A stretch of 64,000 nucleotides of DNA from Candidatus Eiseniibacteriota bacterium (GCA_963707915.1 OY970178.1:1248001-1312000), one strand, 5' to 3'. Positions 1,552-64,000 are shown, counted from the stretch's first letter. The notes: a model not told the origin generated them from the letters alone. Program-made: numbers and translations.

Positions 1552-4281
1552 TCAAGGCCGGCCGGGCGGCGGGACCGGCATCGCCGAGGCCCGGGGCCTC
1601 ATCATCTGCAGGATGGCCTGCGCCTGCTGCTCCCCCGGGTTCGCCTCCACCAGCCGCTGCAGGTAGCCCAGCGCCTGCTCGGTCTGCCCCGCCTGGCCCA
1701 GCGTGTAGTAGGCGCCGTAGTACGGCCGCACGTACGTGGGATCCAGCCGGATCGCGGCGTCGAACTCCCGCAGCGCCCCGGCCAGGTCGCGCTGGAACGC
1801 CAGCGTGATGCCCAGGTAGTAGCGGACCTCCGGATTGTCGGGCCGGCGCTGCGCCAGGCCCCGGAAGAGCTCCAGCGCCTTGGCCGTGTCACGCTTCTCC
1901 ATGTAGAAGCCACCCAGCGGGATCAGCACGTCGGCGAAGTCCGGGAACATGCGCTGCACGCGCTCCATCTCCCCGATGGCGCGGTCGAGCTGGCCGCGCT
2001 GGTGGTAGACGTAGGCGAGCTGCAGATGCGCCGAGGCGTAGTTGCGCGAGAGCGTCACGGCGCTCTCGTCCTTGAACACCGTGCGATCGATCGAGCCGTC
2101 GGCCGTGAACAGACCGTCGTAGCGGAACCGGTGATACAGGTTCCGCTCCATCGCCGGCACGTCGATCGGGGCCTGCAGCGAGTCCCGGTTCACCCGGTAG
2201 ACCAGCCCCTCGAGCGTGAGGTAGGGACCGTAGCCCCGGTGGTCCGGCGCCGTCACCGCGAAGTACGGCTGCTTGATCCAGCCGGTGTCGCGCCGCGACG
2301 CCTCGATGATGTGCCCGACCATGAAGTCGTTGGTGTAGATGACGCGGCCCTCGTTGTCCTCGAAGGCCCCGCCCCCGATCCCCCGGACGACCTCGTCGGG
2401 CAGGTCGATCGGCACCTTCGGCTCCTGGTCGCGCAACTGGAAGATGTACCAGTCGGTCTGGAGCAGGGCGAGACAGACGACGCGGACGTCCTTGCGGAAG
2501 CCCTCGACCTGCTGGATGTACCACAGCGGGTAGGTGTCGTTGTCGCCGTTGGTGAACACGAACGAGTTCGGCGCCAGCGGCGCCAGGATGTTCCACGCGT
2601 AGTCCCGCGCCACCGTGTTCCGGCTGTTGTCCGAGCTGAACCACAGGTTGCGCATCACCACGAACGGCTGCACCGCCAGCAGCACCGCCGCCGCCGCCGT
2701 CGCCGTCCGCCGCGTCACCCCCGGCTCGAACGAGTCCCGGATCCACCCCACCAGCCCCACGATCCCCAGCCCCATCCAGATCGTGTACGTCAGGTAGCCG
2801 GTCGTGAAGAAGTAGTCCCGGTCCCGCACCTCCTGGTCGCTGAAGTTCAGGAACAGGATCATCCCCACCGTCGCGAACAGGAACAGCGTCAGCATGGTCA
2901 GGAACGTCACCCGCTCCCGCCGCGCCTGCCAATAGCCCCCCAGCCCCCCCAGCAGCAGCGGCAGCAGCACCTGCCACAGCCGCGGCTCGCCCTGCACCGG
3001 GATCCCGCCCTCCACCTTCAGCGTGCTCGCCAGCGGCCACTGCCGCTTCCAGTACCGCCAGAACTCCTTGTCCAGCTGCGTGCGCAGCGTCCCCCGCCGC
3101 ACGAACATGCTGGTGTGCCCGTACTGCTCGCGCTCCAGCAGCCGCTTCAGCGCCGGCCAGTCCGACGGCGTGCCCATGTTGATCGCCGGGTGCTGCGCCG
3201 CCCGGATCGGCAGGTACAGGTGCGTCGAGTAGCCCGCCGTCATCAGGAACAGCGCCAGCGCCAGGATCCGCCCCTCGCGGTGCCGCAGCGCCAGCGCCAC
3301 CACCGGCACCACCACCACCGCCACCGACACCAGCGCCGCCAGCGGCGTGAACGCCGCCGGCCCGAACGCGAAGTACGCCCCGTACAGCGCCCCCGCCGTC
3401 GCCCCCAGCGCCAGCCACGCCTCCAGCTTGCGCTGCGCCACGTAGTACCAGAACACCAGGATCGACAGCACCAGGATGATCCCCGCCATCCGCTCCAGCC
3501 CGTACGTCACCCCCAGCACCGACGCCATCGGCATCGCGAACAGCACGAACACCCGCCGGTCCACCAGCGCCAGCAGCACCAGCAGCGGCAGCCCCATCAT
3601 CCCCACCCCCAGCATCAGCCCCACCGACAGCCACATCACGTACACCGCCACCAGCAACGGCCCCACCGTCGGCCGCTGCTCGTGCGCCTCCCACCAGCGC
3701 AGCGCCAGCCACAGGATCAGCACCTGCGCCATCGCCATCTCCGAGTACGTCTCCGCCCCGGTCGCGTTGTCCCAGAAGTTGCTCGAGAACGCCAGCATCA
3801 ACGCCCCCGTCACCGCCCCCAGCTGCGCCAGCCACTCCGTCCCCAGCGTCGCCAGCAGCCCCGGCCCCTTCGCCAGCAGGTCCGGCACCGCCACCGGCTC
3901 CGCCGCCGCCGCCATCACGCCCCGCCGCTGCGCGATGCGGATCAGCCGCAGCGTCACCAGGTAGGTCAGCAGCACCCCCAGCGCCGAGGCCAGCGCCGAC
4001 ATCCCGTTCACCCGCTGCGCCACGTTCCCCAGCGGCACCAGCGTCGCCACCCGGCCCAGCAGCACGTAGAACGGCGTCCCCGGCGGGTGCGGGATGCCCA
4101 GGATCTTCGAGACCGAGATGAACTCGCCCGCGTCCCAGAACGGCGCGGACGGCGCCAGCGTGCGCAGGTAGACGCCCAGGGCGGCGAGGAACACCAGCAG
4201 GCCGGCCATGAAGGTCAGGCGTCCCGGGCCCCGGTCCGTGCCGGGCACGCCGGGGGCGGTCGAAGAGGTCTTGTCCGTCAC
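1552..4281 (-). CDS. DUF2723 (TMEM260-like) multi-TM protein glycosyltransferase with C-terminal TPRs
   Basis: FWDAGEF, GIPHPPGTP, REQYG, EVRDRDYFF, FTNGDNDTYPLWY motifs; TPR-like helices at C-terminus. Confidence 0.85.
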   Translation of the reverse strand: MTDKTSSTAPGVPGTDRGPGRLTFMAGLLVFLAALGVYLRTLAPSAPFWDAGEFISVSKILGIPHPPGTPFYVLLGRVATLVPLGNVAQRVNGMSALASALGVLLTYLVTLRLIRIAQRRGVMAAAAEPVAVPDLLAKGPGLLATLGTEWLAQLGAVTGALMLAFSSNFWDNATGAETYSEMAMAQVLILWLALRWWEAHEQRPTVGPLLVAVYVMWLSVGLMLGVGMMGLPLLVLLALVDRRVFVLFAMPMASVLGVTYGLERMAGIILVLSILVFWYYVAQRKLEAWLALGATAGALYGAYFAFGPAAFTPLAALVSVAVVVVPVVALALRHREGRILALALFLMTAGYSTHLYLPIRAAQHPAINMGTPSDWPALKRLLEREQYGHTSMFVRRGTLRTQLDKEFWRYWKRQWPLASTLKVEGGIPVQGEPRLWQVLLPLLLGGLGGYWQARRERVTFLTMLTLFLFATVGMILFLNFSDQEVRDRDYFFTTGYLTYTIWMGLGIVGLVGWIRDSFEPGVTRRTATAAAAVLLAVQPFVVMRNLWFSSDNSRNTVARDYAWNILAPLAPNSFVFTNGDNDTYPLWYIQQVEGFRKDVRVVCLALLQTDWYIFQLRDQEPKVPIDLPDEVVRGIGGGAFEDNEGRVIYTNDFMVGHIIEASRRDTGWIKQPYFAVTAPDHRGYGPYLTLEGLVYRVNRDSLQAPIDVPAMERNLYHRFRYDGLFTADGSIDRTVFKDESAVTLSRNYASAHLQLAYVYHQRGQLDRAIGEMERVQRMFPDFADVLIPLGGFYMEKRDTAKALELFRGLAQRRPDNPEVRYYLGITLAFQRDLAGALREFDAAIRLDPTYVRPYYGAYYTLGQAGQTEQALGYLQRLVEANPGEQQAQAILQMMRPRASAMPVPPPGRP

Positions 4282-6424: not shown

Positions 6425-7212
6425 GGCTTCTCGGCCACCGTGCCGATGACGTGGCAGGTGTAGAGCGCCCAGCGTCGACGGCCGAGCCGCGCGCGCAGCC
6501 CCTCCCAGCCCGACCGCCAGAAGCGCGGGCCCGCCGGCTCGAGCGGCAGGGAGACGCGCAGCGTCCGCCGGAGTCCCTCGCGCAGGACGCGGTAGCCGAG
6601 CCCCGGCACCATCCACTCGCCGTAGCTGCGCCGGGGCGCGAGACCGCTCGCCTCCAGCAGGCGCTCCAGTCCCGCGGGCGTGAACTGGGTCTCCCAGCCC
6701 GCGAACCAGCGGTTCAGCGCGATCAGGACCTGCTTCATCAGCGTGTAGGGGTGGAAGGTCTGCGGCACGTCCACGATCACGCGCCCGCCGCGCGCCGCGA
6801 CGCGGGCGTTCTCGCGCAGCAGCGGCAGCGGATCGCGGAAGTGCTCGAGCAGGCCCTGGTGGAAGACCACGTCGAAGGCGCCGTCGCGGAACGGCATGCG
6901 CAGCGCGTCGGCCTGCACCAGCAGCACCGGCACGCCCTGCTCACCGGCCTGGCGCCGCACCAGCCCGAGCGAGGCCGGGGAGTAGTCGAGCACCACCCCC
7001 ACCGCGCCCGCGCGCGCCAGGGCCAGCAGGTCGCGGCCCGAGCCGGCCCCCACCTCCATCACCCGGCGGCCCGCGACCGGCCCCTCGCGCAGCACCTCGC
7101 GGGCCAGGCGCCCGCCGGTCGAGTAGGTCCGGTCGAGGTCGGCGTGACCCTTCCAGTACGACTCCCAGTGATCCAGCGTGGACTCGCGCCGCGCGGTCGG
7201 ATCGCCCGTCAT
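6421..7212 (-). CDS. Class I SAM-dependent methyltransferase
   Basis: VMEVGAGSG, DALRMPFRDGAFDVVFHQGLLEHF. Confidence 0.85.
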   Translation of the reverse strand: MTGDPTARRESTLDHWESYWKGHADLDRTYSTGGRLAREVLREGPVAGRRVMEVGAGSGRDLLALARAGAVGVVLDYSPASLGLVRRQAGEQGVPVLLVQADALRMPFRDGAFDVVFHQGLLEHFRDPLPLLRENARVAARGGRVIVDVPQTFHPYTLMKQVLIALNRWFAGWETQFTPAGLERLLEASGLAPRRSYGEWMVPGLGYRVLREGLRRTLRVSLPLEPAGPRFWRSGWEGLRARLGRRRWALYTCHVIGTVAEKP

Positions 7213-7943
7213 CACTCCCCCCACTGCAACCGGTCGCCCAGGAAGGGCGGCAGCCCGGCGTCCAGGATGCGTTTTCGCGCCGCCAGGAGATCGTAGTCCA
7301 CGCGCACTTGGCGCACCCAGCCGCGCCCGTCGTCCCAGAGGAGATAGCCGGCGCGCGGATCGCCGTCGCGCGGCTGGCCCACGCTCGGCACGATCACCAG
7401 GAAGCGGCCACCCGGGTCGAGCGGGATCTCCGGCTCGCGGCTGAAGACGACCTCGCCGGTGACGCCGTCGAGCCGGTACGCGCCCGGCCGGTGCAGGTGC
7501 CCGACCAGGCAGAGCGGCTCGATGAACGTGTCGAACTCGGCGCGCGCCTCCCCGACCTCCAGCACGTAGTGCCAGGATCGCGGCGCGGACGGCGAGGCGT
7601 GCACCAGCAGCGCGCCCGCGTGGCGGACCGTGATGGGCAGGGACTCCAGGTAGGCCTGGCACGCGGGCGTGAGGACCGTCGCGGTCCAGCGCGCGGCCTG
7701 CGCCGCGTTGGAGCCGAAGCTCCCGAGCCGGATCCGGCCGCACACCGCCACGTCGTGGTTCCCCGCCACCGCCGCCGTGACGACCGGGCGCAGGCGCTCG
7801 ATGCATTCGTTGGGCGAGGCCCCGTAGCCCACGAAGTCGCCGAGGCAGAGGATCTCGCGGGCACCGGACCGCCCGACATCTGCGAGCACCGCCTCGAGCG
7901 CCTCGAGGTTGCTGTGGATGTCCGAGAGGACGGCGCGCAGCAT
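7212..7943 (-). CDS. Metallophosphoesterase (calcineurin-like)
   Basis: SDIHSN, LGDFVGYG, GNHD, GHLH motifs. Confidence 0.9.
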   Translation of the reverse strand: MLRAVLSDIHSNLEALEAVLADVGRSGAREILCLGDFVGYGASPNECIERLRPVVTAAVAGNHDVAVCGRIRLGSFGSNAAQAARWTATVLTPACQAYLESLPITVRHAGALLVHASPSAPRSWHYVLEVGEARAEFDTFIEPLCLVGHLHRPGAYRLDGVTGEVVFSREPEIPLDPGGRFLVIVPSVGQPRDGDPRAGYLLWDDGRGWVRQVRVDYDLLAARKRILDAGLPPFLGDRLQWGE

Positions 7944-18046: not shown

Positions 18047-18122
18047 TGGTGACCCGTGCTGGGATCGAACCAGCGACTCCCTGCTTAAAAGGCAGGTGCT
18101 CTACCGACTGAGCTAACGGGTC
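18047..18122 (-). tRNA. tRNA-Lys (anticodon TTT)
   Basis: GACCCGT TA GCTC AGTCGGTA GAGC A CCTGC CTTTTAA GCAGG GAGTC GCTGG TTCGATC CCAGC ACGGGTC A CCA; full cloverleaf with CCA. Confidence 0.97.
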
Positions 18123-18302
18123 ACGGAGGTGCTGGGCCGCAGGTTAGCGCAGCGGGGCTGGTGGACGCTATGGGCCCCTCTTGCCCGTTGACTCCCAGGA
18201 TGGCATCGTCCCCAAGCATCGAGGCATCCAGCAACAGGCACGTCCCGCGCCGCCGTGGTGTCCAAGCCCCGACATCCAGCCGTCGTTCGGAGTGGCCGTC
18301 AT

Positions 18303-21767: not shown

Positions 21768-23834
21768 CTACCGGCCGAGTACGGCCTTCGCCGTCTTGAC
21801 TACGTGCTCCACGGTGAATCCGTACCGGGCCATTACCTCGGGTCCTGGCGCCGACGCGCCGAAGCGATCCACGCCGATGATCGCGCCGCCCGGCCCGACG
21901 TAGCGTTCCCAGCCGAACGGCGAGCCCGCCTCCACACTGACCCGCGCGTGCACCGCGGGCGGCAGCACCGCGTGCCGGTACTCGGCGGATTGCGCCTCGA
22001 ACAACTCCCACGACGGCATCGACACGACGCGGCTCCGGATGCCCTCGCCCGCGAGTTGCCGGTGCGCATCGAGCGCGAGAGAGATCTCCGAGCCGGTCGC
22101 GATCAGAATGAGTTCCGGCGGTCCCTTGCCCGCGTCGATCAGGACGTAGGCGCCACGCGTGGTGCCAGTGGCGGGGGCGAGCGTGGTCCGGTCGAGCACC
22201 GGGAGCTTCTGGCGGGTGAGCACCAGCCCCACCGGCCCAGCCGTGTGCTGCATCGCGATCCGCCACGCCTCGACCGTTTCGTTCGCGTCCGCCGGCCGCA
22301 GCACCAGCAGGTTCGGCATCGCTCGCAGGCTGGCGAGCTGCTCGACCGGCTGATGCGTCGGGCCGTCCTCGCCGACCGCCAGGCTGTCGTGGGTCCACAC
22401 GTAGATCACGTGCGCGCCACTCAGAGCGGCCAGCCGGATGCTCGGCCGCATGTAGTCGGAGAACACCAGGAAGGTCGCCCCAAACGGCACCACGCCACCG
22501 TGATGTGCCATGCCCGTGAGGATGGCGGTCATCGCGTGCTCGCGGATCCCGATATGGAGGTTCCGTCCCGCGTAGCCCCACACGCCGCCCGCCTCTCCCT
22601 GCGTCGGCGGGGTCTGCCCGTCCTCCAGTACGGCCGCGCTCTGGAAGTCGCCCTTCCCCTTGAGCATCGTCATTGTCGACGGATCGAGGTCCGCCGACCC
22701 GCCGACGAGGTTCGGCACGGATTCGGCCAGCGCCCTGATCACCTTGCCACCGGCGTCCCGCGTGGCGACGGCGCCGTCCTGGGGCGTGAATTCCGGAAGT
22801 CGGGCGTCCCACTGCGGCGGGAGTTGTCCCGCCATCACCCGGTCGAACTCACCGGCGAGGTCCTCCTCTGCCGTGCGGTATTCGTCCATCGCCCGCTGCC
22901 AGGCGGCGCGCATCGCCGCACCTCGCTCGCGGACCTTGTCGAATTCTCCTTGTGCCTCCTCCGGCACGTAGAACGTCCGATCGTCGGGCCAACCGTAGGC
23001 CCGCTTCGTCAGCCGCGTCTCCTCCTCGCCCAGTGGCTCGCCGTGGGCCTGGCAGGTGTCCTGCTTGTGCAGGCTCCCGAACCCGATGTGCGTGCGCGCC
23101 ACGATGAGAGACGGCCGGCGGTCGTCGGCGCGGGCCGCCACGAGCGCCGCGTCGATCGCGTCCACGTCCATGCCGTCCACGCGCTGCAAGTGCCACCCGT
23201 ACGCCCTGAATCGCGCGCCGACGCCTTCCGAGAAGGTGAGGTTCGTGGTCGCGGAGAGGGTGATGCGGTTCGCGTCGTAGAGCACGATGAGTCGGCCGAG
23301 ACGAAGGTGGCCGGCGAGAGACGCCGCCTCCGAGGCGATTCCCTCCATCAGGTCGCCGTCGCTCGCGAGGACATAGGTCCGGTGGTCCACGATCGTGTGC
23401 CCGGGCCGATTGAAGGTGGCGGCCAGCCAGCGTTCCGCGATCGCCATGCCGACGGCATTGCCGACACCCTGGCCCAGCGGCCCCGTGGTCACCTCGAGAC
23501 CGGGGGTGACTCCACGTTCGGGGTGACCGGGTGTCCGGCTGCCCCAGCGCCGGAAGTTCTTGAGGTCGTCGAGCGTGAGGTCGTACCCCGTCAGATGGAG
23601 CAGGCTGTAGGGCAGCATGCTCCCGTGCCCCGCCGAGAGGACGAATCGATCCCGATCGACCCAGGTCGGTCTCGCGGGGTCATGCCGGAGATGGCGCGTC
23701 CACAGCACGTAGGCCATGGCCGCCGCGCCCATCGGCAGTCCCGGATGTCCCGATGCCGCCTTCTCGATGGCATCAATGCTGAGCGTGCGGATGGTGTTGA
23801 TGCACAGCCGGTCGAGGTCGGACAGGGGCGGCAT
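21768..23834 (-). CDS. tkt: Transketolase
   Basis: [38 protein letters not shown]; start placed after AAGGAGG. Confidence 0.96.
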
Positions 23835-23845
23835 GCGAGCCTCCT

Positions 23846-24544
23846 TCATGGGCGTGACCGGGTTCCCGCGGCGGCTGCGTCTGCAACGATCAGCGCACGG
23901 TCGCCCGGTATCCGGCTGGCCGGAATGGAGTCGTCGCCCCGGCGCAGGCTGTCCAGGATCGCGGTCTTGTCGGCCCCCGTCACCAGCCAGAGGATGCGCC
24001 GGGCACGGTGGAGCACTGGGAAGGTGAGCGTCATCCGTCGGTACCCCTGGTAGGGACCGGTCGGAGAAACGTCGACATCATCGACGGCGAGCACCGGATC
24101 ACCCGGGACGAGCGAGGCCGTGTGTCCATCGGTCCCGAGCCCGAGGTGCACGAGATCCAGGATCGCCGGGTCCCCAGCCACGGTCCTGAGCCCTGCAGCG
24201 TACCTCGCGGCGGCCCCGTCGAGATCCGCCTCCTCCACGGGCATGGCATGGAAGTGTCCTTCGGGCAGCTGGACGCGCGACAGCAGGTTCTCATTGAGAT
24301 GCACCAGGATGCGATCAGGGTGACCGGCCGGCACCAGGCGTTCATCGACCTGGAACAGATGGACATTCGCCCAGGGCACGTCTTCCTCCGCCAGACGAGC
24401 AAGCATCCGCCAGGGAGTCGAGCCGCCGCTCGTCGCCAGGAGAGCCCGGCCGCGTAGCGCCACCGACGCCCGGGCCTCCCTCGCGATGAGTGCCGCCGCC
24501 CTGCGGGCCGCAGAATCGACGTCGGGCAGGACCTCCATCCTCAT
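23846..24544 (-). CDS. pgl: 6-phosphogluconolactonase (copy 1)
   Basis: [27 protein letters not shown]. Confidence 0.9.
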
Positions 24545-25125
24545 CGGTCCCCCCCGAGATGGCACACCTCGTTCCAACACCGGATCAAGCGCTGTTCGCC
24601 ATCGTGGCCGAGTACGCTCAGGGAACCGGTGTCGAGCGCCAGAATGCGGCCCCCGCGTGCCGGCAGCCCCAGCCAACGCGCGGCCAGGATCCTCAGGAAG
24701 TGCCCGTGGGCGAAGAGTGCAACCTCCCCACCGACGGCGAGCGCCTTGGCGATGACGCGATCTGCGCGCTCGCCGACCTGGTCGACCGTCTCGCCCCCCG
24801 GGACCACGCCGTCCCAGATGGTCCAGGCAGCACTCTCAGCGCGGATCTCGTCCGTGGTGCGTCCCTCGTAGACGCCGTAGTCCCACTCCCGGAGGTCATC
24901 GTCGGCGTGAGCGATGTCTCCGTATCCCGCGATACCGCAGGTCGCGCTGGCGCGGTCCAGGGGGCTCGTGAGGACCAGACTGAAGTGGCGGCCAGCGAGC
25001 CTCGACTGCAGGCGTGCGCCCTGCTGCCGGCCGTGCTCGGTGAGAGCGATGTTGGTACGTCCCGTGTGGCGACCCGATACGCTCCACTCCGTGTCGCCGT
25101 GCCGGATGAGCCAGAGTTCGAGCAT
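24541..25125 (-). CDS. Histidine phosphatase family protein
   Basis: LIRHGDTEWS, EWDYG, AHGH. Confidence 0.9.
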   Translation of the reverse strand: MLELWLIRHGDTEWSVSGRHTGRTNIALTEHGRQQGARLQSRLAGRHFSLVLTSPLDRASATCGIAGYGDIAHADDDLREWDYGVYEGRTTDEIRAESAAWTIWDGVVPGGETVDQVGERADRVIAKALAVGGEVALFAHGHFLRILAARWLGLPARGGRILALDTGSLSVLGHDGEQRLIRCWNEVCHLGGDR

Positions 25126-25145
25126 CTTCGATCTCCGCCCCGCCG

Positions 25146-25738
25146 CTACGGCGACTCCGGTGGTTCGAGCCAGCCCCCCGGGACGATGGCCTGCGCCTCG
25201 ACAGGGCCCCAGGTGCCGGGCTCGTACAAGACCGGCATCTCCTCGTCCCTGAGCAACGGGTCGACGATTCGCCACGCCTCCTCGACGTAGTCCTGACGGG
25301 CGAACCGGAATGTCTCGCCCTTCATGGCGTCCCCGAGCAGTTCGGCGTAGGGTCGGTCTCCGCGCCGTCATGCTCGTGGGTCGCGATGAGTTCCAGGTTG
25401 CGCCCCCTCTCCCTCTCGCCGCCTTCCCTCACGGTGGCGCCGAGCGCGATGGTGAACTCGGGCCTGAGCCGGAAGCGCACATGGTTCGGCGTCAGCGGCG
25501 CCAAGTCCGCGATCGTCTGGTCCAGCACGGCGGCGGGCACCATCATCCAGATGGCCCGCGGCGCGGAGAGCCGCTTCACGAACTCATCCAGCGTGGCCGC
25601 CCCGACGGCGCCCTCGTGCGCCAGCGCCTGCGCCACCTCTGGCACCCGGTCGAATACCACGCAGGTGTGTCCCGCGCGCATGAGGCGCCGCACCATGCTG
25701 GCGCCCATCCGACCGAGACCGATCATTCCCAGTTCCAT
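25146..25738 (-). pseudogene. gnd N-terminus fused by deletion to a frameshifted zwf C-terminus
   Basis: MELGMIGLGRMG...WMMVPA (Gnd) joins PNHVRFRL (Zwf) near 25490; frameshift near 25350; then [15 protein letters not shown]...YEPGTWGP. Confidence 0.85.
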
Positions 25739-25775: not shown

Positions 25776-26168
25776 TCAGACCCCTCCCGCCTTCATCGCC
25801 CGATGCGCCGCCCCGATCAATGGCGCCCGGTCGTTCACGATGACGCGGACCGGCATCGCCTCGAGCAGGGGGCGGAGGCGCCCCTTTCCCAGGAAGCGGG
25901 CCAGGAAGATCTCGTGGGCCCGCGAGCGCCACGCCTGCCGGACATCCGCTCCGCCGACGAGGAGCTTCCGCGCGATGCCGCCCCCCAGGTAGACTCCGGC
26001 CGTGGCCATCGTCCGGAGCGCCCAGTTCCCCGCCTCGGCGCCGTAGATCCCCAGGAACAGGTCAACGGACCGGGCGCAGCGGGCGCATCGCCCGTCCACC
26101 CCGGCCTCCGCGACGGCTTCCGTCGGGCCGCGGCGATTCATCTCTTCAGTGAGCCAGGCGGGTTCGTC
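25776..26168 (-). pseudogene. glk: Glucokinase 3' part (IS-interrupted)
   Basis: YGAEAGNWAL, GVYLGGGI, FLGKGR. Confidence 0.85.
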
Positions 26169-27447
26169 GGTAGCGTCAAGAGTCATGTGTCAGGAGGAAG
26201 GGGGCTGAGGTTCCGGCCTTGTGGTTTTCGTAGGTGAAGACGGCGAACAGGATGCGCTCCATGGAGGTGCGGTCACTGAAGACCCCCATGGGGCGCGTTC
26301 TTCTGCGGACCTCGCGGAAGCGGCGTTCGATGGCGTTGGTGGTGCGGGTGGCCTGGCGCCAGGCGGAATCGTCGAAGGCGAAGAACGCCAGCAGGTCCTC
26401 GAGGTCCTGCTGCAGGCAGCGGACCGCGGCCGGGTAGCGGGTGTGCCAGCGGTCGACCAGGTGCCGGGCGGCCGCTCGTGCAGTGGTGCGGTTGACTGCG
26501 TGGCTGATGCGGTGCAGGTCGCGCTTGACCCGCTCGCGGTCGGTGTCTCGCACCTTGTCGAGGATGTTGCGGGTCTTGTGGGCCCAGCAGCGGCCGACCC
26601 GGACCCGCGGGTAGACCAGCGGCAGCGCGGCGAGCAGACCGGCACCGCCATCGGTGGCGATCAGGGTGAGGCCCTCGCCGGTGAGCCCGCGGGCATAGAG
26701 ATCGTTGAGGAACGCCTCCCAGGCCGGCTGGCTCTCGGCCGGGGCGAGGCGGAAGTCGAGGATCTCCTTCTTCCCGGCGAGCGTGATCCCGAGCGCCACC
26801 AGCACGGGCCGGCGCAACGCCCCGGCGCCGCTCTTGCGGGCCAGCACCACGCCATCGAGCAGCACGGCCCGGTAACGGTTGGCGAGCGGGCGACGATGGA
26901 ACGCGGCGGCCGCCTCATCCAGGCCCCGCGCCACCCGGCTCACCGTCGCCGGGCTGACCCGCTCGCCCAGCAGGGGCAGCAGCGCCTCGCCCACCTTGCG
27001 GGTCGAAAGCCCGAGGACGAAGCCGGCCAGGATCACCCGCTCGAGTTGGGGCACCCGCCGGGCATAGCGGCCCAGCACGGCGACCGCGCTGTAGGTCCGG
27101 GAGCGTGGCACCTGCAACTCCAGGACGCCGACCTCATGCCACAGCCAGCGGCGGTAGCTGCCATTGCGGCGGTCAGCGACCCCGGCCGCGGCCAGTTCGG
27201 CGATCCGGTTGCCCACCAGGCCGTGCATCCGCTCCTCGATCACCCGCCGGACCGCGGCCTGGCTCGCCTGCCTCAGCTCGTTCCACTCCGGCGCCTGCAC
27301 CGCCATCGACTTGAGCATCCGCACCGCCTGCTTCACACTGCGCACCGCAGCGACCTGCTGCATGGGGGTACCTCCTTGAGGTGGTTGGCCCTGCCTCTGT
27401 TGGAGTACCCCCTTCCTTGTCCCTGACACAAACACTGGTACATCACC
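26169..27447 (-). mobile_element. IS256-family insertion sequence, 1279 bp, 8-bp target duplication
   Basis: GGTTCGTC at 26161-26168 and 27448-27455; imperfect terminal IRs GGT...TGTGTCAGG. Confidence 0.93.
26176..27363 (-). CDS. IS256 (Mutator) transposase
   Basis: RRNG, GLSTR, LLDG, TDG, RCWAH, TTNAIER; SD GGAGG. Confidence 0.93.
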   Translation of the reverse strand: MQQVAAVRSVKQAVRMLKSMAVQAPEWNELRQASQAAVRRVIEERMHGLVGNRIAELAAAGVADRRNGSYRRWLWHEVGVLELQVPRSRTYSAVAVLGRYARRVPQLERVILAGFVLGLSTRKVGEALLPLLGERVSPATVSRVARGLDEAAAAFHRRPLANRYRAVLLDGVVLARKSGAGALRRPVLVALGITLAGKKEILDFRLAPAESQPAWEAFLNDLYARGLTGEGLTLIATDGGAGLLAALPLVYPRVRVGRCWAHKTRNILDKVRDTDRERVKRDLHRISHAVNRTTARAAARHLVDRWHTRYPAAVRCLQQDLEDLLAFFAFDDSAWRQATRTTNAIERRFREVRRRTRPMGVFSDRTSMERILFAVFTYENHKAGTSAPFLLTHDS

Positions 27448-27455
27448 GGTTCGTC

Positions 27456-28079
27456 TCCACCCTCGCGGTCACGGAGAAATGAGTAGAGACTGAGGAGCCC
27501 GGGGCCGGACAGGACGCGCTCCACGCTCACGTGCCCGAAGCGGGCCTGGAGGTGCCGCAGCAACTCCATCTCGATCTCCTCGGCAGGAGCGAAGTCCGCG
27601 TGTCCTCCTTCGCTGGCGAGCGCCATGGCACCGGCCGGGCCCCGAATCAGGGCTGAGAACCCCAGGCCGGTGCCCGCGGCGATGACCGCGGCGTTCCCCC
27701 GGGTGCCGGAGCCTTCCTGAAGTGGCGCCAGGTCGACCGCCGCCAGACGCTCGACCGCCCAGGCATGTGCCTCGACATCGTTGAGCAGCACGACCGACGC
27801 CAGCCCGAGTCGCCGCGCGAGACTCCTTCCGTCGATCAGCCAGGGAAGATTCGTCGTGTGCACCTGCCCCCCCACGACCGGTCCGGCCACGCCGAAGCCG
27901 GCCGCCTGGAGGCGTGAAGCCCCTCCGCTCAGGAAGTGTTCGATGATTCCGTCGAGCGAGTCGTGATCGCGGCTGGGATAGGTCGCGAATCGAACGAACT
28001 CCAGCACGCCCTGCTTCTCCTCCAGGAGTGCCAGGTTCGTCTTCGTCCCACCGATGTCGCATGCCAAGATCATCGTCAC
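27456..28079 (-). pseudogene. glk: Glucokinase 5' part (IS-interrupted)
   Basis: CDIGGTKT, GVAGPV, TNLPW, LLND, GTGLG, SEGGH, ERVLSG. Confidence 0.88.
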
Positions 28080-40172: not shown

Positions 40173-42005
40173 ATGCCGTTCCAACACATCGCAAGACACG
40201 CTGAAAGGTGGGGGCTGGATGCGGTCGGGCGCGCGCTTGCCCTCAGCTCACTCGTCGGTGTGGTGGCGGGAACGGGCGCAATCGTCTTCCAAGTCCTCTG
40301 CCAGGGCGCCCAGCACCTTCTGTTGGATCGGCTTGCCGGGGCCCGACTCGAAGGCCCGGCAGGGGAGCTGGCGCTCTTCGCCTCGACGACGACGCCCTTC
40401 CGTCCATGGATGCTCCCCGTCGTAACCGCCCTGGGCGGGCTCCTGACCGGGATCATCGTCCAGCGGTTCGCCCCCGAGGCGGCGGGCCACGGGACCGACG
40501 AGGCCGTGGACGCCTTCCACCGCCGCGGTGGCGTCATCCGCGGGCGCGTGCCGATCATCAAGACCATCGCCTCGGCGATCACCCTGGGTTCGGGGGGTTC
40601 GGGGGGGCGAGAAGGACCGATCGCGCAGATCGGCGCCGGCTTCGGGTCGTTCCTCGCGACGAAGCTGAGGCTCAGCGAGCGGGATCGGCGCATCCTGCTC
40701 GCGGCCGGCGTAGGCGCGGGCGTCGGGAGCATCTTCCGTGCACCCCTGGCGGGCGCGCTGTTCGCGGCGGAGGTCCTCTACTCCGATCCCGAATTCGAGC
40801 CGGACGTCATCATCCCGGCCGCCATCTCGACGATCATCGCCTACTGCGTGTTCTCCCTGAAGTTCGGCTTCGCCCCGCTCTTCGCGACCCCGCACTTCGC
40901 GTTCCATTCGGCGGCTGAACTGATCCCCTACACCGGCCTCGCGGTCGTGGTGGCCCTCGGCGCGATCGCGTTCGTGAAGGTCTTCTATGGCATGCACGCC
41001 GTCTTCAATCGTCTCGGCATCCCGAAGTTCCTGAAGCCTATGGTGGGAGGCCTGCTGACCGGTGGGCTGGCCCTGGTGGCCTACTACACGCTGCGGGATT
41101 CCCGCACGCTGGACGTCCTCGCCTTCGGGTACGGCTCCATCCAGCATGCGTTGCGGGGCGAGCTCCCCATCGTCCTGCTGCTGGTACTGGCGGGCGGGAA
41201 GATCCTCACCACGTCGTTCTCGATCGGCTCGGGGGGCTCGGGCGGCGTCTTCGGACCCTCCATGGTGATCGGCGGGGCGCTCGGGGGCGCGGTCGGGCTC
41301 GTCGCGCAGCAGTGGATGCCCGAAGTCGTCACGCAGCCCGGCGCGTTCGTGGCGGTCGGGATGGCGGGGTTCTTCTCAGCCGCTGCCAACACGCCCATCT
41401 CGACGCTCGTCATGGTCTCGGAGATGACGGGGAACTACCAACTGCTCCTGCCCGCGCTCTGGGTCTGCTCCCTCTCCTACCTGCTGGCACGGCGCTGGAC
41501 CCTCTACCGCAGCCAGGTTCGTTCCCGGCTCGATTCGCCGGCGCACCGCGGGGCGATCCTCGGTGGGATCCTGCAGGCCCTGCGCGTGCGGGACGTCCTG
41601 GGCGACCGGCCACTCCATACCGTGCAGGAGACGGCTTCGATGCGCGAAGTGATCCAGGCCTGCATGCGGTCCTCACAGCACAGCTATCCGGTCGTCGATG
41701 AGAGGGGACAGATGACCGGACTCATCACGCTGGCCCAGGTCCGGCAGTTCCTCGACGAGCACGACGAGACCGTTCCGGTCATTGCCCAGGACCTTGCTTC
41801 ACGGCCGCGGGCGAACCTGTCGCCCGACGACGATCTCGACACCGCCCTCCAGCGGCTGATGTCCTTGGACGCGGAGGACCTCCCGGTGGTCGAGGCCGGG
41901 AACCCGCCGCGGGTACTGGGGCTCCTCTCCCGCCGGGACATCATGGTGGCCTACGCCGGACGGCGGCTCGAGGGCGGACAACTGACGCGTCCGCCCTCAG
42001 GCTAG
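40173..42005 (+). CDS. ClC chloride channel/antiporter with CBS pair
   Basis: GHGTD, GREGP, GGVFGP; C-terminal CBS domains. Confidence 0.92.
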   Translation: MPFQHIARHAERWGLDAVGRALALSSLVGVVAGTGAIVFQVLCQGAQHLLLDRLAGARLEGPAGELALFASTTTPFRPWMLPVVTALGGLLTGIIVQRFAPEAAGHGTDEAVDAFHRRGGVIRGRVPIIKTIASAITLGSGGSGGREGPIAQIGAGFGSFLATKLRLSERDRRILLAAGVGAGVGSIFRAPLAGALFAAEVLYSDPEFEPDVIIPAAISTIIAYCVFSLKFGFAPLFATPHFAFHSAAELIPYTGLAVVVALGAIAFVKVFYGMHAVFNRLGIPKFLKPMVGGLLTGGLALVAYYTLRDSRTLDVLAFGYGSIQHALRGELPIVLLLVLAGGKILTTSFSIGSGGSGGVFGPSMVIGGALGGAVGLVAQQWMPEVVTQPGAFVAVGMAGFFSAAANTPISTLVMVSEMTGNYQLLLPALWVCSLSYLLARRWTLYRSQVRSRLDSPAHRGAILGGILQALRVRDVLGDRPLHTVQETASMREVIQACMRSSQHSYPVVDERGQMTGLITLAQVRQFLDEHDETVPVIAQDLASRPRANLSPDDDLDTALQRLMSLDAEDLPVVEAGNPPRVLGLLSRRDIMVAYAGRRLEGGQLTRPPSG

Positions 42006-42180
42006 TCGCGGCAATCTCGGGGCTTCCGGCACCCCGCCGAGGCACCCGATAAGCAGGGGGCCTACATCTGCTGGCGCCCGTGGCGTCAGGCTTCCAGAGC
42101 ACCTGCCTACTCGGCAGTTATCTCTCCGTCCATCTGGCTCGCCCCCCCGTGTACCTGAATTGGGCCTGCTTGAAAGTCCG

Positions 42181-42220
42181 TACCTGTCCGCTCTTGTCCC
42201 CTCCTGTCCGCTCCTGTCCG
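42181..42220. repeat. Four tandem 10-bp imperfect repeats (consensus CTCCTGTCCG)
   Basis: TACCTGTCCG CTCTTGTCCC CTCCTGTCCG CTCCTGTCCG. Confidence 0.85.
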
Positions 42221-42314
42221 GAGGGCGGAATCGGGGCAACTCGCAGCGAAGGCGTGTACATCGGTGTCCTGCGGGCGCCTGCGACGACGGGCGTCGTCGG
42301 GCGTGGTTACGCCC

Positions 42315-42350
42315 AAGAGGCAGGTGCTCTACCGACTGAGCTAACGGGTC
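42315..42350 (-). pseudogene. tRNA-Lys 5' half ending at a CTT anticodon (att-like fragment)
   Basis: GACCCGTTAGCTCAGTCGGTAGAGCACCTGCCTCTT then unrelated sequence; matches 18087-18122 except position 34. Confidence 0.9.
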
Positions 42351-42511
42351 ACGGGGGCTGCTGGCGAGCAGGGTAGTGCAGGGGGGCGCACGGCGGTAGG
42401 GCCGCGTGGAGAGGACACCGGAGAGCGGGCCTGCGAGTGCACCTCTCGGTGATGGGGGCCAGCCCAGCAGCGGCGGCTTGGCACCAGCCCGTGATTGCGC
42501 GCAATCTGCGG

Positions 42512-42619
42512 CTGCTTCACCACGATCAGTTTCCGGGTCGCGCTGAGCCCGCCGGCCTCGAGCCGGTACAGGTGCACCCCCGGTCGCCAGCCGGACGCTT
42601 CCACCGCCACCTCGTGCTA
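42512..42619 (-). pseudogene. Orphan T9SS-type-A/FlgD-Ig C-terminal tail remnant
   Basis: HEVAVEASGWRPGVHLYRLEAGGLSATRKLIVVK with an upstream in-frame TAG. Confidence 0.6.
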
Positions 42620-42659
42620 CCCGTCCAGAGGCGAACCGCGGGCGCTCTCGATTCACGAA

Positions 42660-43664
42660 TCAAGGTGGGAACGCCGAGGCCGGCGGAAAGTCGCCGCCCG
42701 GCTCCGGAGACGGCTCCCAGTACCCGTCGACCTCCCTCCGGCTCGGCTGCCAGGTCCCGTTTGCGAACGTGTACCGGTCGTAGTCCGTCACGGGGTTTCC
42801 GGGTCCGTTCAAGTCGACGTGCCAGGACACCGCCAGGATCACGTCCGGAACACGCGAGGCGATCCTCCAGTCCGCGCTGCCGGCCCTCCGTAACTCCAGT
42901 ATCTCCGCCGCCCGCGCGCCGCCGGCGCGCACCGTCTCCCAGTGGAGGACGCCCGCGGATACGCGCGCAAACCGCGTCACCGGTCCGTTGTGGATCCCCG
43001 CCACCCAGGAGAAGTCCTCGGTCACGAGGAACCGGCGGTTCGCCGAGCCCGTGCTGTCCCAGGGCTCGAGCTGGGCCAGGACCTGCCGGAGTGGGCGCGT
43101 CCACAGGACCCGGCCGTCCACCGACGTGCATCGCAACTCCGCCCGCACGGGGGGCCTGCGCGCGAACGAGCGGGCCGCGCGCGACGTCTCGGGGAGAACG
43201 GCATCCCACGGACCGTGGCCCCACATGCGATCGGCGACGTCTCCGGTGAGCCGCCGGTCGAGGCGCAGCTCGAGGACGCCATCGACACCGTTCACGGCGC
43301 TCGTCAGCCGATCGCGCTGGACCGTCACCCGTCCGTCATCGGCCGCGATCGCGAGGACCGGGACGAGCCAGGCCCACGTGGCGAGCCGCAGGACGATCCC
43401 GGGGCCCGTCCTCCGGCCGCGCCCGGCCCCGGCGATCACCAGAGCAGGTCCCACTGCCTCGGGTCCTCCAACAGGCGCAGCGGCCAGAACTCCTTCTGGG
43501 CGCCTGCATGCACCACCAGGACTCCTCCTATGCATCTGCCTTCCAGGCGGTCCCCGCTGCCCAGTCCGTGGCAGTGACGCGACCGCTTGAACAACGACTC
43601 GCCGGAGCGCCGCTCCGAGCGCCTCCCACCGTGCTGCCGGATGGTCACGAGAACCATCGGCCAC
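42660..43664 (-). CDS. Hypothetical, probably secreted protein (true start likely near 43400)
   Basis: Hydrophobic LATWAWLVPVLAIAADD segment then globular-looking sequence. Confidence 0.4.
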   Translation of the reverse strand: MADGSRDHPAARWEALGAALRRVVVQAVASLPRTGQRGPPGRQMHRRSPGGACRRPEGVLAAAPVGGPEAVGPALVIAGAGRGRRTGPGIVLRLATWAWLVPVLAIAADDGRVTVQRDRLTSAVNGVDGVLELRLDRRLTGDVADRMWGHGPWDAVLPETSRAARSFARRPPVRAELRCTSVDGRVLWTRPLRQVLAQLEPWDSTGSANRRFLVTEDFSWVAGIHNGPVTRFARVSAGVLHWETVRAGGARAAEILELRRAGSADWRIASRVPDVILAVSWHVDLNGPGNPVTDYDRYTFANGTWQPSRREVDGYWEPSPEPGGDFPPASAFPP

Positions 43665-60577: not shown

Positions 60578-60931
60578 TCACTGCCCGGCCGCCCTCTTCG
60601 TACTCAGCCCGCGTCTTGCCACGCCCAGGGCCGTGCGCAAGCCGGCCAACTCCAGCGCCTGCCTGCCCACCAGGCGCTCCAGTTCACGAATGTGCGCTTG
60701 CGCCGCCTGCAACTCCGTCGCCGGCAGCACGACGGTGCGGGCCGCCGTCGCCCCGGCCCCCTGAGTCACGAGCCGCTTCCAGCGCTGCAACAGCCCTCTC
60801 GCGATCCCCAGCTTCCGGCTCAACTGCGCGAGCGTCAGTTCGCCGCGCAGCACGCGGCCGACCTGCTCATGCTTGAATTCGGCGGTGAAGATCCGCCGCC
60901 CATCCGACTTCCTCGCAAAGCGAGCCATCAC
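60578..60931 (-). CDS. IS3-family OrfA-like HTH protein (no intact OrfB)
   Basis: RRIFTAEFK, LSRKLGI, LLQRWK, IRELERLVGR leucine zipper. Confidence 0.75.
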   Translation of the reverse strand: MMARFARKSDGRRIFTAEFKHEQVGRVLRGELTLAQLSRKLGIARGLLQRWKRLVTQGAGATAARTVVLPATELQAAQAHIRELERLVGRQALELAGLRTALGVARRGLSTKRAAGQ

Positions 60932-62094: not shown

Positions 62095-62177
62095 CAGGCG
62101 ACCTCGCACGGGGTGCGGAGGGGGCTGACGGACGGTCGGTCCAGATCGGCAGCCGTCGGCATGCGGCACTTCTTCAT
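62095..62177 (-). pseudogene. Degenerate tkt N-terminal remnant
   Basis: MKKCRMPTAADLDRPSVSPLRT vs [22 protein letters not shown], same ATGA overlap with pgl. Confidence 0.6.
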
Positions 62178-62872
62178 GGGCCAGGCAGGGGATCCGCTGC
62201 CGCGGCGTCGGTCAGGACCAGCGCCCGGTCGGCACGGACGCGACCGGCTGGGATCGAGGGGTCGCCACGGAGCAGACGCGACAAGGCCGCATGCTTGTCG
62301 GGTCCGGTCACCACCCAGAGGATCCGCCGGGCCCGGCCCAGCAGGGGGAATGTGAGTGTCATGCGCCGGTACCCCTGGAAGGGGTCCGTCGCAACCACGT
62401 CGGCATCGGCGGTGCCGGGCTCCGGGCTCCCCGGGACGAGCGACGCGGTGTGTCCGTCGGCCCCGAGCCCGAGGTGCACCAGGTCGAGCACCGCCGGCCG
62501 GCCCGCGACCGCCTGCAGGATCGCGGCGTATCGGCTCGCGGCAGCGTCCAGGTCCGCGCCTTCGACGGGCATGGCATGGATCTGCCCCGGCGGGACCGGG
62601 ACCCGCGCCAGCAGGTTCTCGCGGAGATGCCGGAGGTTGCGCTCGGGGTGTCCGGCAGGTACCACGCGCTCGTCGACCTGGAAGAGGTGCACGGATGCCC
62701 AGGGCACATCCTCCTCCGCCAGCTTGCGAAGCATGCGCCACGGCGTCGTCCCGCCGCTCGTGGCGAGCAGGAAGCGACCCCGTGCCGCCACCGCGGTCCG
62801 CGCTTCGCCCGCGATGACCGCCGCCGCCCGGCGGGCAACGGCCTCGGCGTCCGGCAGCACTTCGGTCGTCAT
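62174..62872 (-). CDS. pgl: 6-phosphogluconolactonase (copy 2)
   Basis: Same length as and closely similar to 23846..24544. Confidence 0.9.
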   Translation of the reverse strand: MTTEVLPDAEAVARRAAAVIAGEARTAVAARGRFLLATSGGTTPWRMLRKLAEEDVPWASVHLFQVDERVVPAGHPERNLRHLRENLLARVPVPPGQIHAMPVEGADLDAAASRYAAILQAVAGRPAVLDLVHLGLGADGHTASLVPGSPEPGTADADVVATDPFQGYRRMTLTFPLLGRARRILWVVTGPDKHAALSRLLRGDPSIPAGRVRADRALVLTDAAAADPLPGP

Positions 62873-62966
62873 GGTCACCCCTGCCGGGGACCGTGTCCGA
62901 AGGATCCCTGCCTGGCCCCGCCATCGCGGGCGCACCGGGATCCGGCTGCTGCCGCCGCCCTCCCCA

Positions 62967-64000
62967 CTAGCGCAGCCCGCCCGAGTCGAACCAGCCGCCG
63001 GGCACGAACGCCTCGGCCGCCGGTGGCCCCCAGGTTCCGGGCTCGTACTCCGTCGGGGGCTGGTCGGCCCCGAGCACGGGGTCCACGATGCGCCACGCCT
63101 CCTCGACGTAGTCCTGCCGCGCGAAGCGGAACGTCTCGCCCTTCATGGCGTCGCCCAGCAACTCGGCGTACGCGTCGGATTCCTCGCCGTCGTGGTCGTG
63201 AGATGCGACGAGCTCGAGGTCGTGGCCGCGGACCTTCGGACCCGGTTCCCGGACCGTCGCGCCGAGCGCGATGATGAAGTCCGGGCTCAGGCGGAAGCGC
63301 ACGTGGTTCGGGGTCGTCTCGAGCCCCTCCACGATCGGCGGCGGGCGGCGGAGCTTCACGACCACCTCGGTGCGGGTCACGGGCAGATGCTTGCCGGCGC
63401 GGATGAAGAAGGGCACGCCCTGCCAACGCCACGAGTTGACCTCCAGGCGCACGGCGGCATAGGTCTCCGTGCGCGAGTCCGGCGCCACCCCGGACTCCGA
63501 GCGATAGCCGCGGAACTGCCCGCGCACCACTTGCGCGGGCCCGAGCGCGGGGATCGACTTCAACACCTTCACCTTCTCGTCGCGGAGGGTCTCGGTGTCG
63601 GGGCTGCCGGGCGGAGGCTCCATGGCCACGTTCGAGAGCACCTGGAGCAGGTGGTTCTGGATCACGTCGCGGATGGCGCCGGCCCGGTCGTAGAAGGCCC
63701 CCCGGCCATGGATGCCGAAGTTCTCGGCCAGCGTGATCTGCACTTCCTCGACGTAGCGGCGATTCCAGATGGGCTCGAGGAAGGCGTTGGCGAAGCGGAA
63801 GAAGATCAGGTTCTGGACCGCGTCCTTGCCGAGGTAGTGGTCGATGCGGAAGATGACCCGCTCGTCGAAGCGGCCATGCAGGATGGCGTTGAGCCGTCGG
63901 GCGGAGGCGAGATCGCTCCCGAACGGCTTCTCGAGGACGAGTCTCGCCCCGGTGCCGCAGCCGGTCCGTCCGAGCTGCTTCACGACCTCCTCGAAGAGCC
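62967..64000 (-). CDS. zwf: Glucose-6-phosphate dehydrogenase (5' end outside window)
   Basis: [34 protein letters not shown]. Confidence 0.95.

Follow-up and report, generated by a model that had tools for sequence, protein, structure and literature searches.

A tRNA-Lys 5′ half 24 kb upstream of its intact gene as the likely scar of an insertion into the anticodon loop

Why should half of a tRNA gene, preceded by a promoter-like leader of its own, lie 24 kb upstream of the intact gene that it copies? The window considered here (i.e., the whole 64,000-nt stretch of Candidatus Eiseniibacteriota DNA, from a source genome that is a single contig of 3.62 Mb with 72% GC) has one sole tRNA, tRNA-Lys(ttt), which ARAGORN places at 18047–18122 on the minus strand. 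On that same strand, 24,228 nt upstream of the gene, positions 42313–42350 correspond to nt 1–38 of this tRNA, and 42350–42315 reads as nt 1–36 of tRNA-Lys(UUU) except at nt 34 (C at 42317 for T). A sequence-only reading of the window had reported this 36-nt repeat, with its C at nt 34, inside the interval 42282–42385. The repeat is confirmed by reading the minus strand, by blastn-short against the whole 3.62-Mb genome (33/33 identity between fragment and tRNA gene, E = 3e-12, and no further copy of the fragment) and by a repeat search, which returns a direct repeat of 43 nt at 95% with a spacing of 24,228 nt.

We consider it likely that the half gene is an attL-type scar, left when an element inserted site-specifically into the anticodon loop of the one tRNA-Lys(UUU) gene in the genome. 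In such an event, the inserted 24,228 bp would have carried a promoter-like leader and tRNA nt 1–38 at its tRNA-proximal end, and the working gene would now combine an element-borne 5′ half with the resident 3′ half. The leader and 5′ half originally at the site would have been pushed 24 kb upstream and joined to the other arm of the element, which has a hairpin, GGAC repeats and an inverted copy of nt 21–33. The enzymes responsible would be lineage-specific tyrosine integrases, whose gene ends 21–35 nt upstream of the regenerated tRNA in complete elements; an integrase of this group would have made the insertion in the window, presumably by a crossover within the anticodon loop.

The two copies and the DNA between them

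The intact gene (18047–18122), which would be the attR-type junction (nt 1–38 brought by the inserted DNA, nt 39–76 resident), is 100% identical in six relatives, and the genes downstream of it, zf-HC2 and YchF, keep their synteny in relatives. It is one of two tRNA-Lys genes in the genome, the other being a CUU gene at C1:3161993–3162068 that is unrelated in sequence both to the fragment and to the UUU gene. The sequence-only reading was right that the upstream leaders are alike: that of the displaced half (42351–42385, minus strand) has CTGCACTACCCT at 42381–42370, and the one now before the tRNA (18123–18175, minus strand), which would be the right arm of the insert, has CTGCGCTAACCT at 18152–18141. 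Conservation of this motif, present within three mismatches in 9/18 fragments and 4/14 intact copies, suggests that both leaders may act as promoters; a consensus promoter scan of 41900–42700 returned zero sigma-70 consensus matches. Beyond the leader of the displaced half lies a remnant like the 3′ end of a secreted-protein gene of the T9SS sorting-domain type (42517–42622, minus strand), which is 80% identical over 106 nt (blastn) to L013:6512–6617, where an ORF with a Por_Secre_tail domain ends; a secreted-protein gene resembling this remnant precedes the intact tRNA in one relative (G006:C84). Next to it is a 334-aa ORF that matches no Pfam family (42660–43664, minus strand; hereafter ORF X).

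The insert itself extends from about 18086 to 42312. Its cargo (18176–42094) includes, by Pfam scan, a Na+/H+ exchanger, a HEAT protein, a transketolase, a histidine phosphatase, a split glucokinase, an SDR, a GH15 glucoamylase, an MFS sugar transporter, a trehalose phosphatase, TetR, OtsA (GT20), MscS-like proteins, DUF5752, TreT, an OmpA-like protein and a ClC channel. The glucokinase gene (25776–28079) is interrupted by an IS256-family (Transposase_mut) element at 26176–27435. GC content is about 74% left of the tRNA and 65–70% from 18 kb on. An insertion of the kind proposed would account for this 24-kb osmotic-stress and trehalose island and for its anchoring at the tRNA. No integrase, whole or remnant, was found among the 31 ORFs of 18.1–42.7 kb (Pfam scan), and a whole-genome search located no PF00589 match in or beside the insert, the nearest being ~330 kb away; because the insert is without an integrase, it would be either a decayed or a non-autonomous element. 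Its right arm is only ~52 nt long and lacks the paired 7-mers known from the 3′ ends of integrase genes, so that the full attP is not reconstructable, which counts against reading the half gene as an integration scar.

Other repeats and layers are apparent in the window. Stretches that are 71–79% identical occur between 23785–25493, in the island, and 62113–63315, and pieces of pentose-phosphate-pathway genes in the island have paralogs at 62–64 kb, namely the 6-phosphogluconolactonase and G6PD genes. Positions 1–300 and 3824–4123 form a direct repeat of at least 300 nt (99% identical, 3.8 kb apart) that reaches the left edge of the window. Right of the fragment, 42400–64000 also has a lower GC content (about 68–70%) and contains an RND efflux operon, a TauE/DUF1634 pair and an IS3-type HTH remnant (60578–60931). 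In five relatives, no close ortholog of ORF X was found and TauE had distant matches only, so that the region right of the fragment is variable as well; it may represent older island layers without recognisable scars.

Two overlapping metagenome contigs, L035 and L042, the flanks of which are 87–90% identical in DNA to those of the window, allow a comparison with a site that does not have the insert. In L035, an ORF X homolog (86% protein, 90% DNA) lies ~140 nt upstream of an intact tRNA-Lys(TTT), with zf-HC2 and YchF next in line; homology to the window thus passes directly from 42635 to 18125, and the 24.2 kb of the window are absent between the ORF X homolog and the tRNA. This is not a clean empty site: the spacer between ORF X and the tRNA is unlike that of the window, and L035 has a 5′ half and cassette of its own upstream. 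L042 has a scar of the window's type (type 1, below), then a single 1052-aa CHRD/FlgD_ig gene, then a leader and 5′ half, and both ends of the window insert match the ends of this 4.6-kb L042/L035 cassette with a different gene inside. The left arm is 87% identical; on the right, window 18085–18175 and the leader and 5′ half that close the cassette share 90% identity over 91 nt. Window 18085–18175 is also 86.5% identical to its equivalent in G006:C17, where the arms are paired as in the window insert and the L042 cassette. Since these two arms also form the ends of a 4.6-kb unit elsewhere with other cargo, the insert would have brought the leader and 5′ half now before the working tRNA, and the fragment and leader at 42.3 kb would be the displaced resident half.

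Islander-type features are present at this locus: an intact tRNA with a same-orientation 5′ fragment upstream, a block end at the anticodon loop, and absence in a relative. A simple empty site was not found in G004, where the flank upstream of tRNA-Lys maps to 2.72–2.74 Mb of the source genome. Among sequencing-run contigs (the best run shares 0.25 of sampled words), we saw no excised or restored junction and no joint across the insert. One contig of run X1 passes from 42318 into an intact tRNA 3′ half that is one base off the gene of the source genome, and this tRNA probably belongs to a relative. Three DNA patterns and one integrase query gave zero matches to a free (attP) form in viral contigs.

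The anticodon loop and the C at nt 34

The loop of the displaced half has three substitutions relative to the tRNA, T>C at nt 34 (42317), A>G at nt 37 (42314) and A>G at nt 38 (42313), and the sequence-only reading had the repeat break off right after the TT of the anticodon. Relatives place the boundary further out. When 41 genomes were searched with the tRNA-Lys sequence, 5′ halves covering nt 1–38 were found in G006 (three copies) and G017, with more diverged ones in G004 (two copies), and their identity to the tRNA ends with nt 38, where the anticodon loop ends; the homologous scars are identical to the tRNA through nt 38, and the window copy aligns with them base for base. Read from nt 32, the five type-1 scars are CTCTTGG-G in the window, CTTTTAA-G in L042, CTCTTAA-T in L037, CTTCTAA-T in G006 and CTTTTAA-T in G017.

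The sequence-only reading had proposed a possible anticodon swap, in which a resident tRNA-Lys(CUU) gene had UUU installed by the element and would regain CUU upon excision. The displaced half does read CTT at nt 34–36, and a second scar (L037) likewise has C34. We nonetheless regard a swap as very improbable: T34 occurs in 14/14 distinct intact copies in relatives, including those of L035, which lacks the insert, and of G004, where no fragment lies within 10.7 kb, and the closest homologous scar (L042) keeps TTT and AA. Relatives without the cargo keep TTT at the locus, and a separate intact CTT gene, unrelated in sequence, exists in the genome, which is the outcome that the sequence-only reading had itself named as refuting its proposal. 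The gene in the window is the only UUU tRNA of its genome, where AAA codons are rare but used (4/138 Lys codons counted). As all 14 intact copies have T34 and AAA is still used, a resident CUU gene is not supported, and with G37 and G38 also present the window loop is not a clean or usable CTT loop.

More improbable still is the second proposal, that a separate tRNA-Lys(CTT) paralog was destroyed here by an unrelated insertion or deletion. A fragment that reads CTT behind its own promoter-like leader is what such a paralog might leave, but over nt 1–33 the fragment matches the UUU gene exactly and does not resemble the CTT gene of this genome, and beyond the loop comes a conserved arm, found after TTT-type halves in four further genomes or contigs. 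No 3′ half was found elsewhere in the genome, and an intact CTT and TTT tandem at this locus was not seen in the 41 genomes searched with the tRNA.

How, then, did the C arise? Across the five scars, bases off the consensus number 1/150 in nt 1–31, 5/35 in the loop, 112/1070 in the arm and 35/172 in the 50 nt upstream (nt 1–31 vs. loop, p = 0.001, Fisher's test; nt 1–31 vs. the arm rate, p about 2e-6, binomial). These rates suggest that the body of the half stays tRNA-like, either through gene conversion by the intact gene or because the site is under selection, and that the loop at the edge of the repeat decays. The window loop has three A/T-to-G/C changes in seven positions (nt 34, 37 and 38), and its C34 looks like later decay, not an anticodon switch. 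Independent decay is not the sole reading, as C34 is also found in the L037 scar, which has an arm of another sub-lineage; some element copies may have carried C in the overlap. Tyrosine recombinases generally need identity in the overlap. With 3/7 putative overlap bases differing from attR, a tyrosine recombinase probably could not excise the insert, the mobility of which is probably lost.

Arms, integrases and cassettes in the lineage

Directly after the displaced half lies the left arm of the insert, a P′-type arm that we call type 1 (42095–42312, minus strand; 218 nt). It is 80–87% identical to stretches that follow tRNA-Lys 5′ halves in G006:C17, G017:C121, L042 and L037, and among the 89 family genomes in which arms and integrases were searched it is present in only three, every time after a tRNA-Lys 5′ half. 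A small hairpin, CGACGAC-GCCC-GTCGTCG (42282–42299, minus strand), begins 14 nt past the loop position, is kept in 4/5 aligned copies and is predicted by RNAalifold. Further along are five GGAC(A/T) units with a 10-bp period (42176–42219, minus strand; GGACAGGAGC and variants), which are invariant in the five-way alignment and are putative protein-binding repeats, judging by their sequence. At the far end of the arm is an inverted copy of tRNA nt 21–33 (42096–42108, plus strand; AGAGCACCTGCCT), invariant in 5/5 copies. The sequence signature of the type-1 arm is four copies of GGACAGGAGC followed at a distance by GGACTTTCAAGCA. In the second family, type 2, a GC-rich hairpin that shows compensatory changes from copy to copy is followed by GGAC repeats and, after these, by paired GT(C/A)ACCC 7-mers that are common to these arms and the 3′ end of an integrase gene in a relative (G018). 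The type-1 arm of the window shares only the tandem GGACAGG repeats with other arms; similar ones occur in the arms after tRNA-Ser(CGA) and tRNA-Arg(CCT) 5′ halves of other genomes. No integrase matching type-1 arms was found. A MITE-like repeat was considered and rejected (the arm is single-copy in the genome, and found in only 3/89 family genomes), as was a group I intron or split tRNA (no 3′ half follows the arm, and blast finds none elsewhere in the genome).

The conservation of leader, half and arm could be read in another way, namely that they form a working tRNA-derived RNA gene, the 3′ end of which pairs with nt 21–33. The promoter-like leader is kept, the 13-nt inverted copy is invariant in all five arms, nt 1–31 are strongly conserved, and predicted folds pair the inverted copy with the 5′ half in a long-range helix (z = −2.44). 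However, the pairs of this long helix are all invariant, without covariation, and Rfam 15 has no family that matches, giving for window 41800–42800 only two chance-level matches (E = 3.4 and 9.5). The element is present in so few family genomes (3/89), and its 10-bp tandem repeats look so much like protein-binding DNA, that we hold an RNA gene to be highly improbable.

Complete elements with an integrase do exist in this lineage. A profile built from fragment-plus-arm units matched arm-like stretches elsewhere in the source genome, 3/4 of them after 5′ halves of tRNA-Ser(CGA) (C1:3337935–3337973, 3341211–3341249 and 1618829–1618867, each then followed by an arm), which also end at the end of the anticodon loop. 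Two of these three halves lie 45–48 kb upstream of the intact tRNA-Ser(CGA) gene (C1:3386450–3386539). Upstream of that gene, on the same strand, is a complete 327-aa tyrosine integrase (C1:3385436–3386416; PF00589, 78 bits) that ends ~35 nt before the tRNA and whose last codons contain paired GGTCACA 7-mers like those in arms; as a query, it finds matches in 56/89 family genomes at E ≤ 1e-10. Another complete integrase, of 336 aa, lies upstream of the intact tRNA-Lys(TTT) of G018 and stops 21 nt short of it; paired GTAACCC/GTCACCC 7-mers, the motif of type-2 arms, occur in the 3′ end of this integrase gene. In G012, an integrase abuts tRNA-Arg(CCT). A mirror form is found in G022 (L045 = G022:C43, around 6715–7792), with an integrase, paired GGTGACA 7-mers, 31 nt of non-tRNA sequence, and then CTTTTAA and the 3′ half of tRNA-Lys(UUU); a search of this 89%-complete assembly with the tRNA query found no intact UUU gene. 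Integrases near GGAC repeats in three further genomes (G054, G077 and G102) do not adjoin tRNAs and were set aside.

Scanning the source genome for tRNA fragments gave 12, comprising six 5′ halves (Arg-CCT, Lys-TTT and Ser-CGA) and six 3′ pieces (three of tRNA-Cys, one of tRNA-Leu(TAA), and the remainder of tRNA-Lys(CTT)). The tRNA-Arg(CCT) 5′ halves (C1:764600–764635 and 772205–772241) lie 5.5 and 13 kb upstream of the gene at 777712, and a PF00589 search found no integrase near them in this genome. The 3′ fragments of tRNA-Lys(CTT) (nt 32–76; C1:3155380–3155424 and 3159855–3159899), downstream of the CUU gene, indicate tandem islands with a crossover again at the anticodon loop. Given the integrase-bearing examples in the source genome (G000), G018 and G012 and this fragment scan, the architecture 5′ half–arm…cargo…integrase–5′ half + 3′ half is real and common in the lineage. 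Together with the arm homology and the L035 site, the examples in G000 and G018 bear out that part of the sequence-only reading in which integration supplied a promoter-like leader and 5′ half.

tRNA-Lys halves recur beyond the sequenced relatives. A metagenome pattern (the loop, then a base other than G) returned 18 loci, 17 of them tRNA-Lys 5′ halves and one a real tRNA of another organism, and each recurrent tRNA-Lys 5′ half is followed by one of the two arm families. The same two arms surround differing cargo: 24 kb in the window, one gene in L042, and a toxin–antitoxin pair in L037, a 2325-bp metagenome contig. The 1.9-kb unit of L037 holds only this AbiEi/AbiEii pair, and is bounded on one side by the type-1 scar with C34 and on the other by a leader, a 5′ half and a type-2 arm. 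Seven complete intervals between successive tRNA-Lys 5′ halves could be read (window, G006:C84, G006:C17, G017, L035, L042 and L037); they measure 1.5 to 24 kb, several carry one gene or a toxin–antitoxin pair, and they close with a leader bearing a conserved TA...T motif, not with the 3′ end of an integrase gene. An integrase in related islands, which the sequence-only reading had said to look for, is thus present where it abuts the tRNA in G000, G018 and G012, but absent from all seven tRNA-Lys intervals. A scan of 31 + 43 ORFs from relatives and metagenome contigs likewise turned up no integrase beside a fragment. One candidate tyrosine recombinase (L014:8289–9530) was rejected as an HTH/rve-like transposase.

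Two other loci with partial tRNA-Lys copies were noted. L015 (= G017:C121, 13636–13653) has an extra copy cut after nt 18, beside an IS3-family (rve) transposase gene. L022, on a contig titled Woesearchaeota, has two tRNA-Lys-like 5′ halves ~180 nt apart, each followed by AT-rich non-tRNA sequence; ARAGORN called no tRNA at either, and they may be intron-containing or split archaeal genes.

Integrase-free intervals are compatible with small non-autonomous cassettes that are mobilised in trans, with exchange between arrays by homologous recombination, and with extensive decay. If recombination were the source, the scars would have been made by integrases in the past, and the 24 kb of the window would have arrived through homologous recombination or gene conversion between arrays, or through later insertions into an older small cassette. 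The same two arms around very different cargo agree with this, as do the lack of an integrase in any interval, a cassette order that differs between L042/L035 and the window, the IS256-family element within the cargo, and the far better preservation of nt 1–31 than of the arm (1/150 vs. 112/1070), which gene conversion would produce. Ordinary integrative elements also normally combine variable cargo with a conserved P′ arm, however, and a donor array with this cargo was not found; we judge such an exchange to be quite unlikely as the origin of the window insert.

A broader model, which goes beyond a site-specific insertion at this one gene and which we put forward as possible though still unlikely, is that single-copy tRNA genes (Lys-UUU, Arg-CCU and Ser-CGA) dock stacked integrase-free cassettes that are moved in trans by dedicated tyrosine integrases abutting the tRNA. 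Each cassette would then consist of a P′-type arm at one end and a promoter and tRNA 5′ half at the other. If true, this would amount to an integron-like arrangement based on a tRNA gene, with transcription of an essential tRNA passing to each new arrival. A bolder version is that the C34 of 2/5 type-1 scars could stem from element copies with a CUU loop, such that integration could occasionally change the anticodon.

Relation to known integrative systems

How does a scar of this kind compare with described systems? In the account given in PMC8371274 (citing Williams 2002), nearly all described bacterial cases displace a 3′ fragment of the tRNA gene and keep the original promoter, while archaeal pTN3-like integrases use the 5′ half and similar bacterial cases are seldom met (citing Williams 2002 and Cossu 2017). 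The Islander configuration filter, as described in PMC4383910, permits 5′ tDNA fragments upstream of the tDNA. For islands of this type, the recognised positions at which an identity block ends are the anticodon loop, the T loop and the 3′ end. Measured against Islander-type islands as that account presents them, the window is alike in its intact tDNA with a same-orientation partial copy on the expected side, in a block that ends at the anticodon loop, in foreign cargo of lower GC, and in arrays at one tRNA; it is unlike them in that its interval is without an integrase and would fail the Islander integrase filter. The window scar is, then, a further case of a known but rarely reported type, one without the integrase that a formal call requires.

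The pTN3-like integrases of Thermococcales, as outlined in PMC8371274, resemble the elements of this lineage in that the element supplies the 5′ half and the regenerated tRNA is expressed from element DNA beside the integrase gene. Those integrases are “suicidal,” with attP inside the integrase gene, which is split on integration (PMC8371274). In contrast, the integrase ORFs of G000 (327 aa) and G018 (336 aa) are whole and stop 21–35 nt before the tRNA, and the hosts are bacterial. Integron cassette arrays offer a different likeness: short recombinase-free units of one to few genes, arranged head to tail, with a copy of the recombination site bounding each. Unlike integrons, the tRNA arrays have no IntI/attI/Pc platform, their sites are tRNA 5′ halves and arms and not attC hairpins, and the G000 integrase scores 66 against 265 bits at the NCBIfam integron-integrase cut-offs. 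A full-text search found no literature on such arrays in this lineage, which is weak evidence of absence.

Island-finding software that looks for 3′ fragments with an integrase inside the interval would overlook islands such as this one. Going by PMC8371274, there are few reports of bacterial islands that substitute the 5′ half and promoter of a tRNA gene, and this lineage has such islands at three tRNA genes; with its intact tRNA-abutting integrases, it offers material for the study of this mirror-image mode of integration. The interest of the locus lies less in the fragment itself than in what it belongs to, namely lineage-wide integrases that supply the 5′ half and cassettes that carry no integrase.
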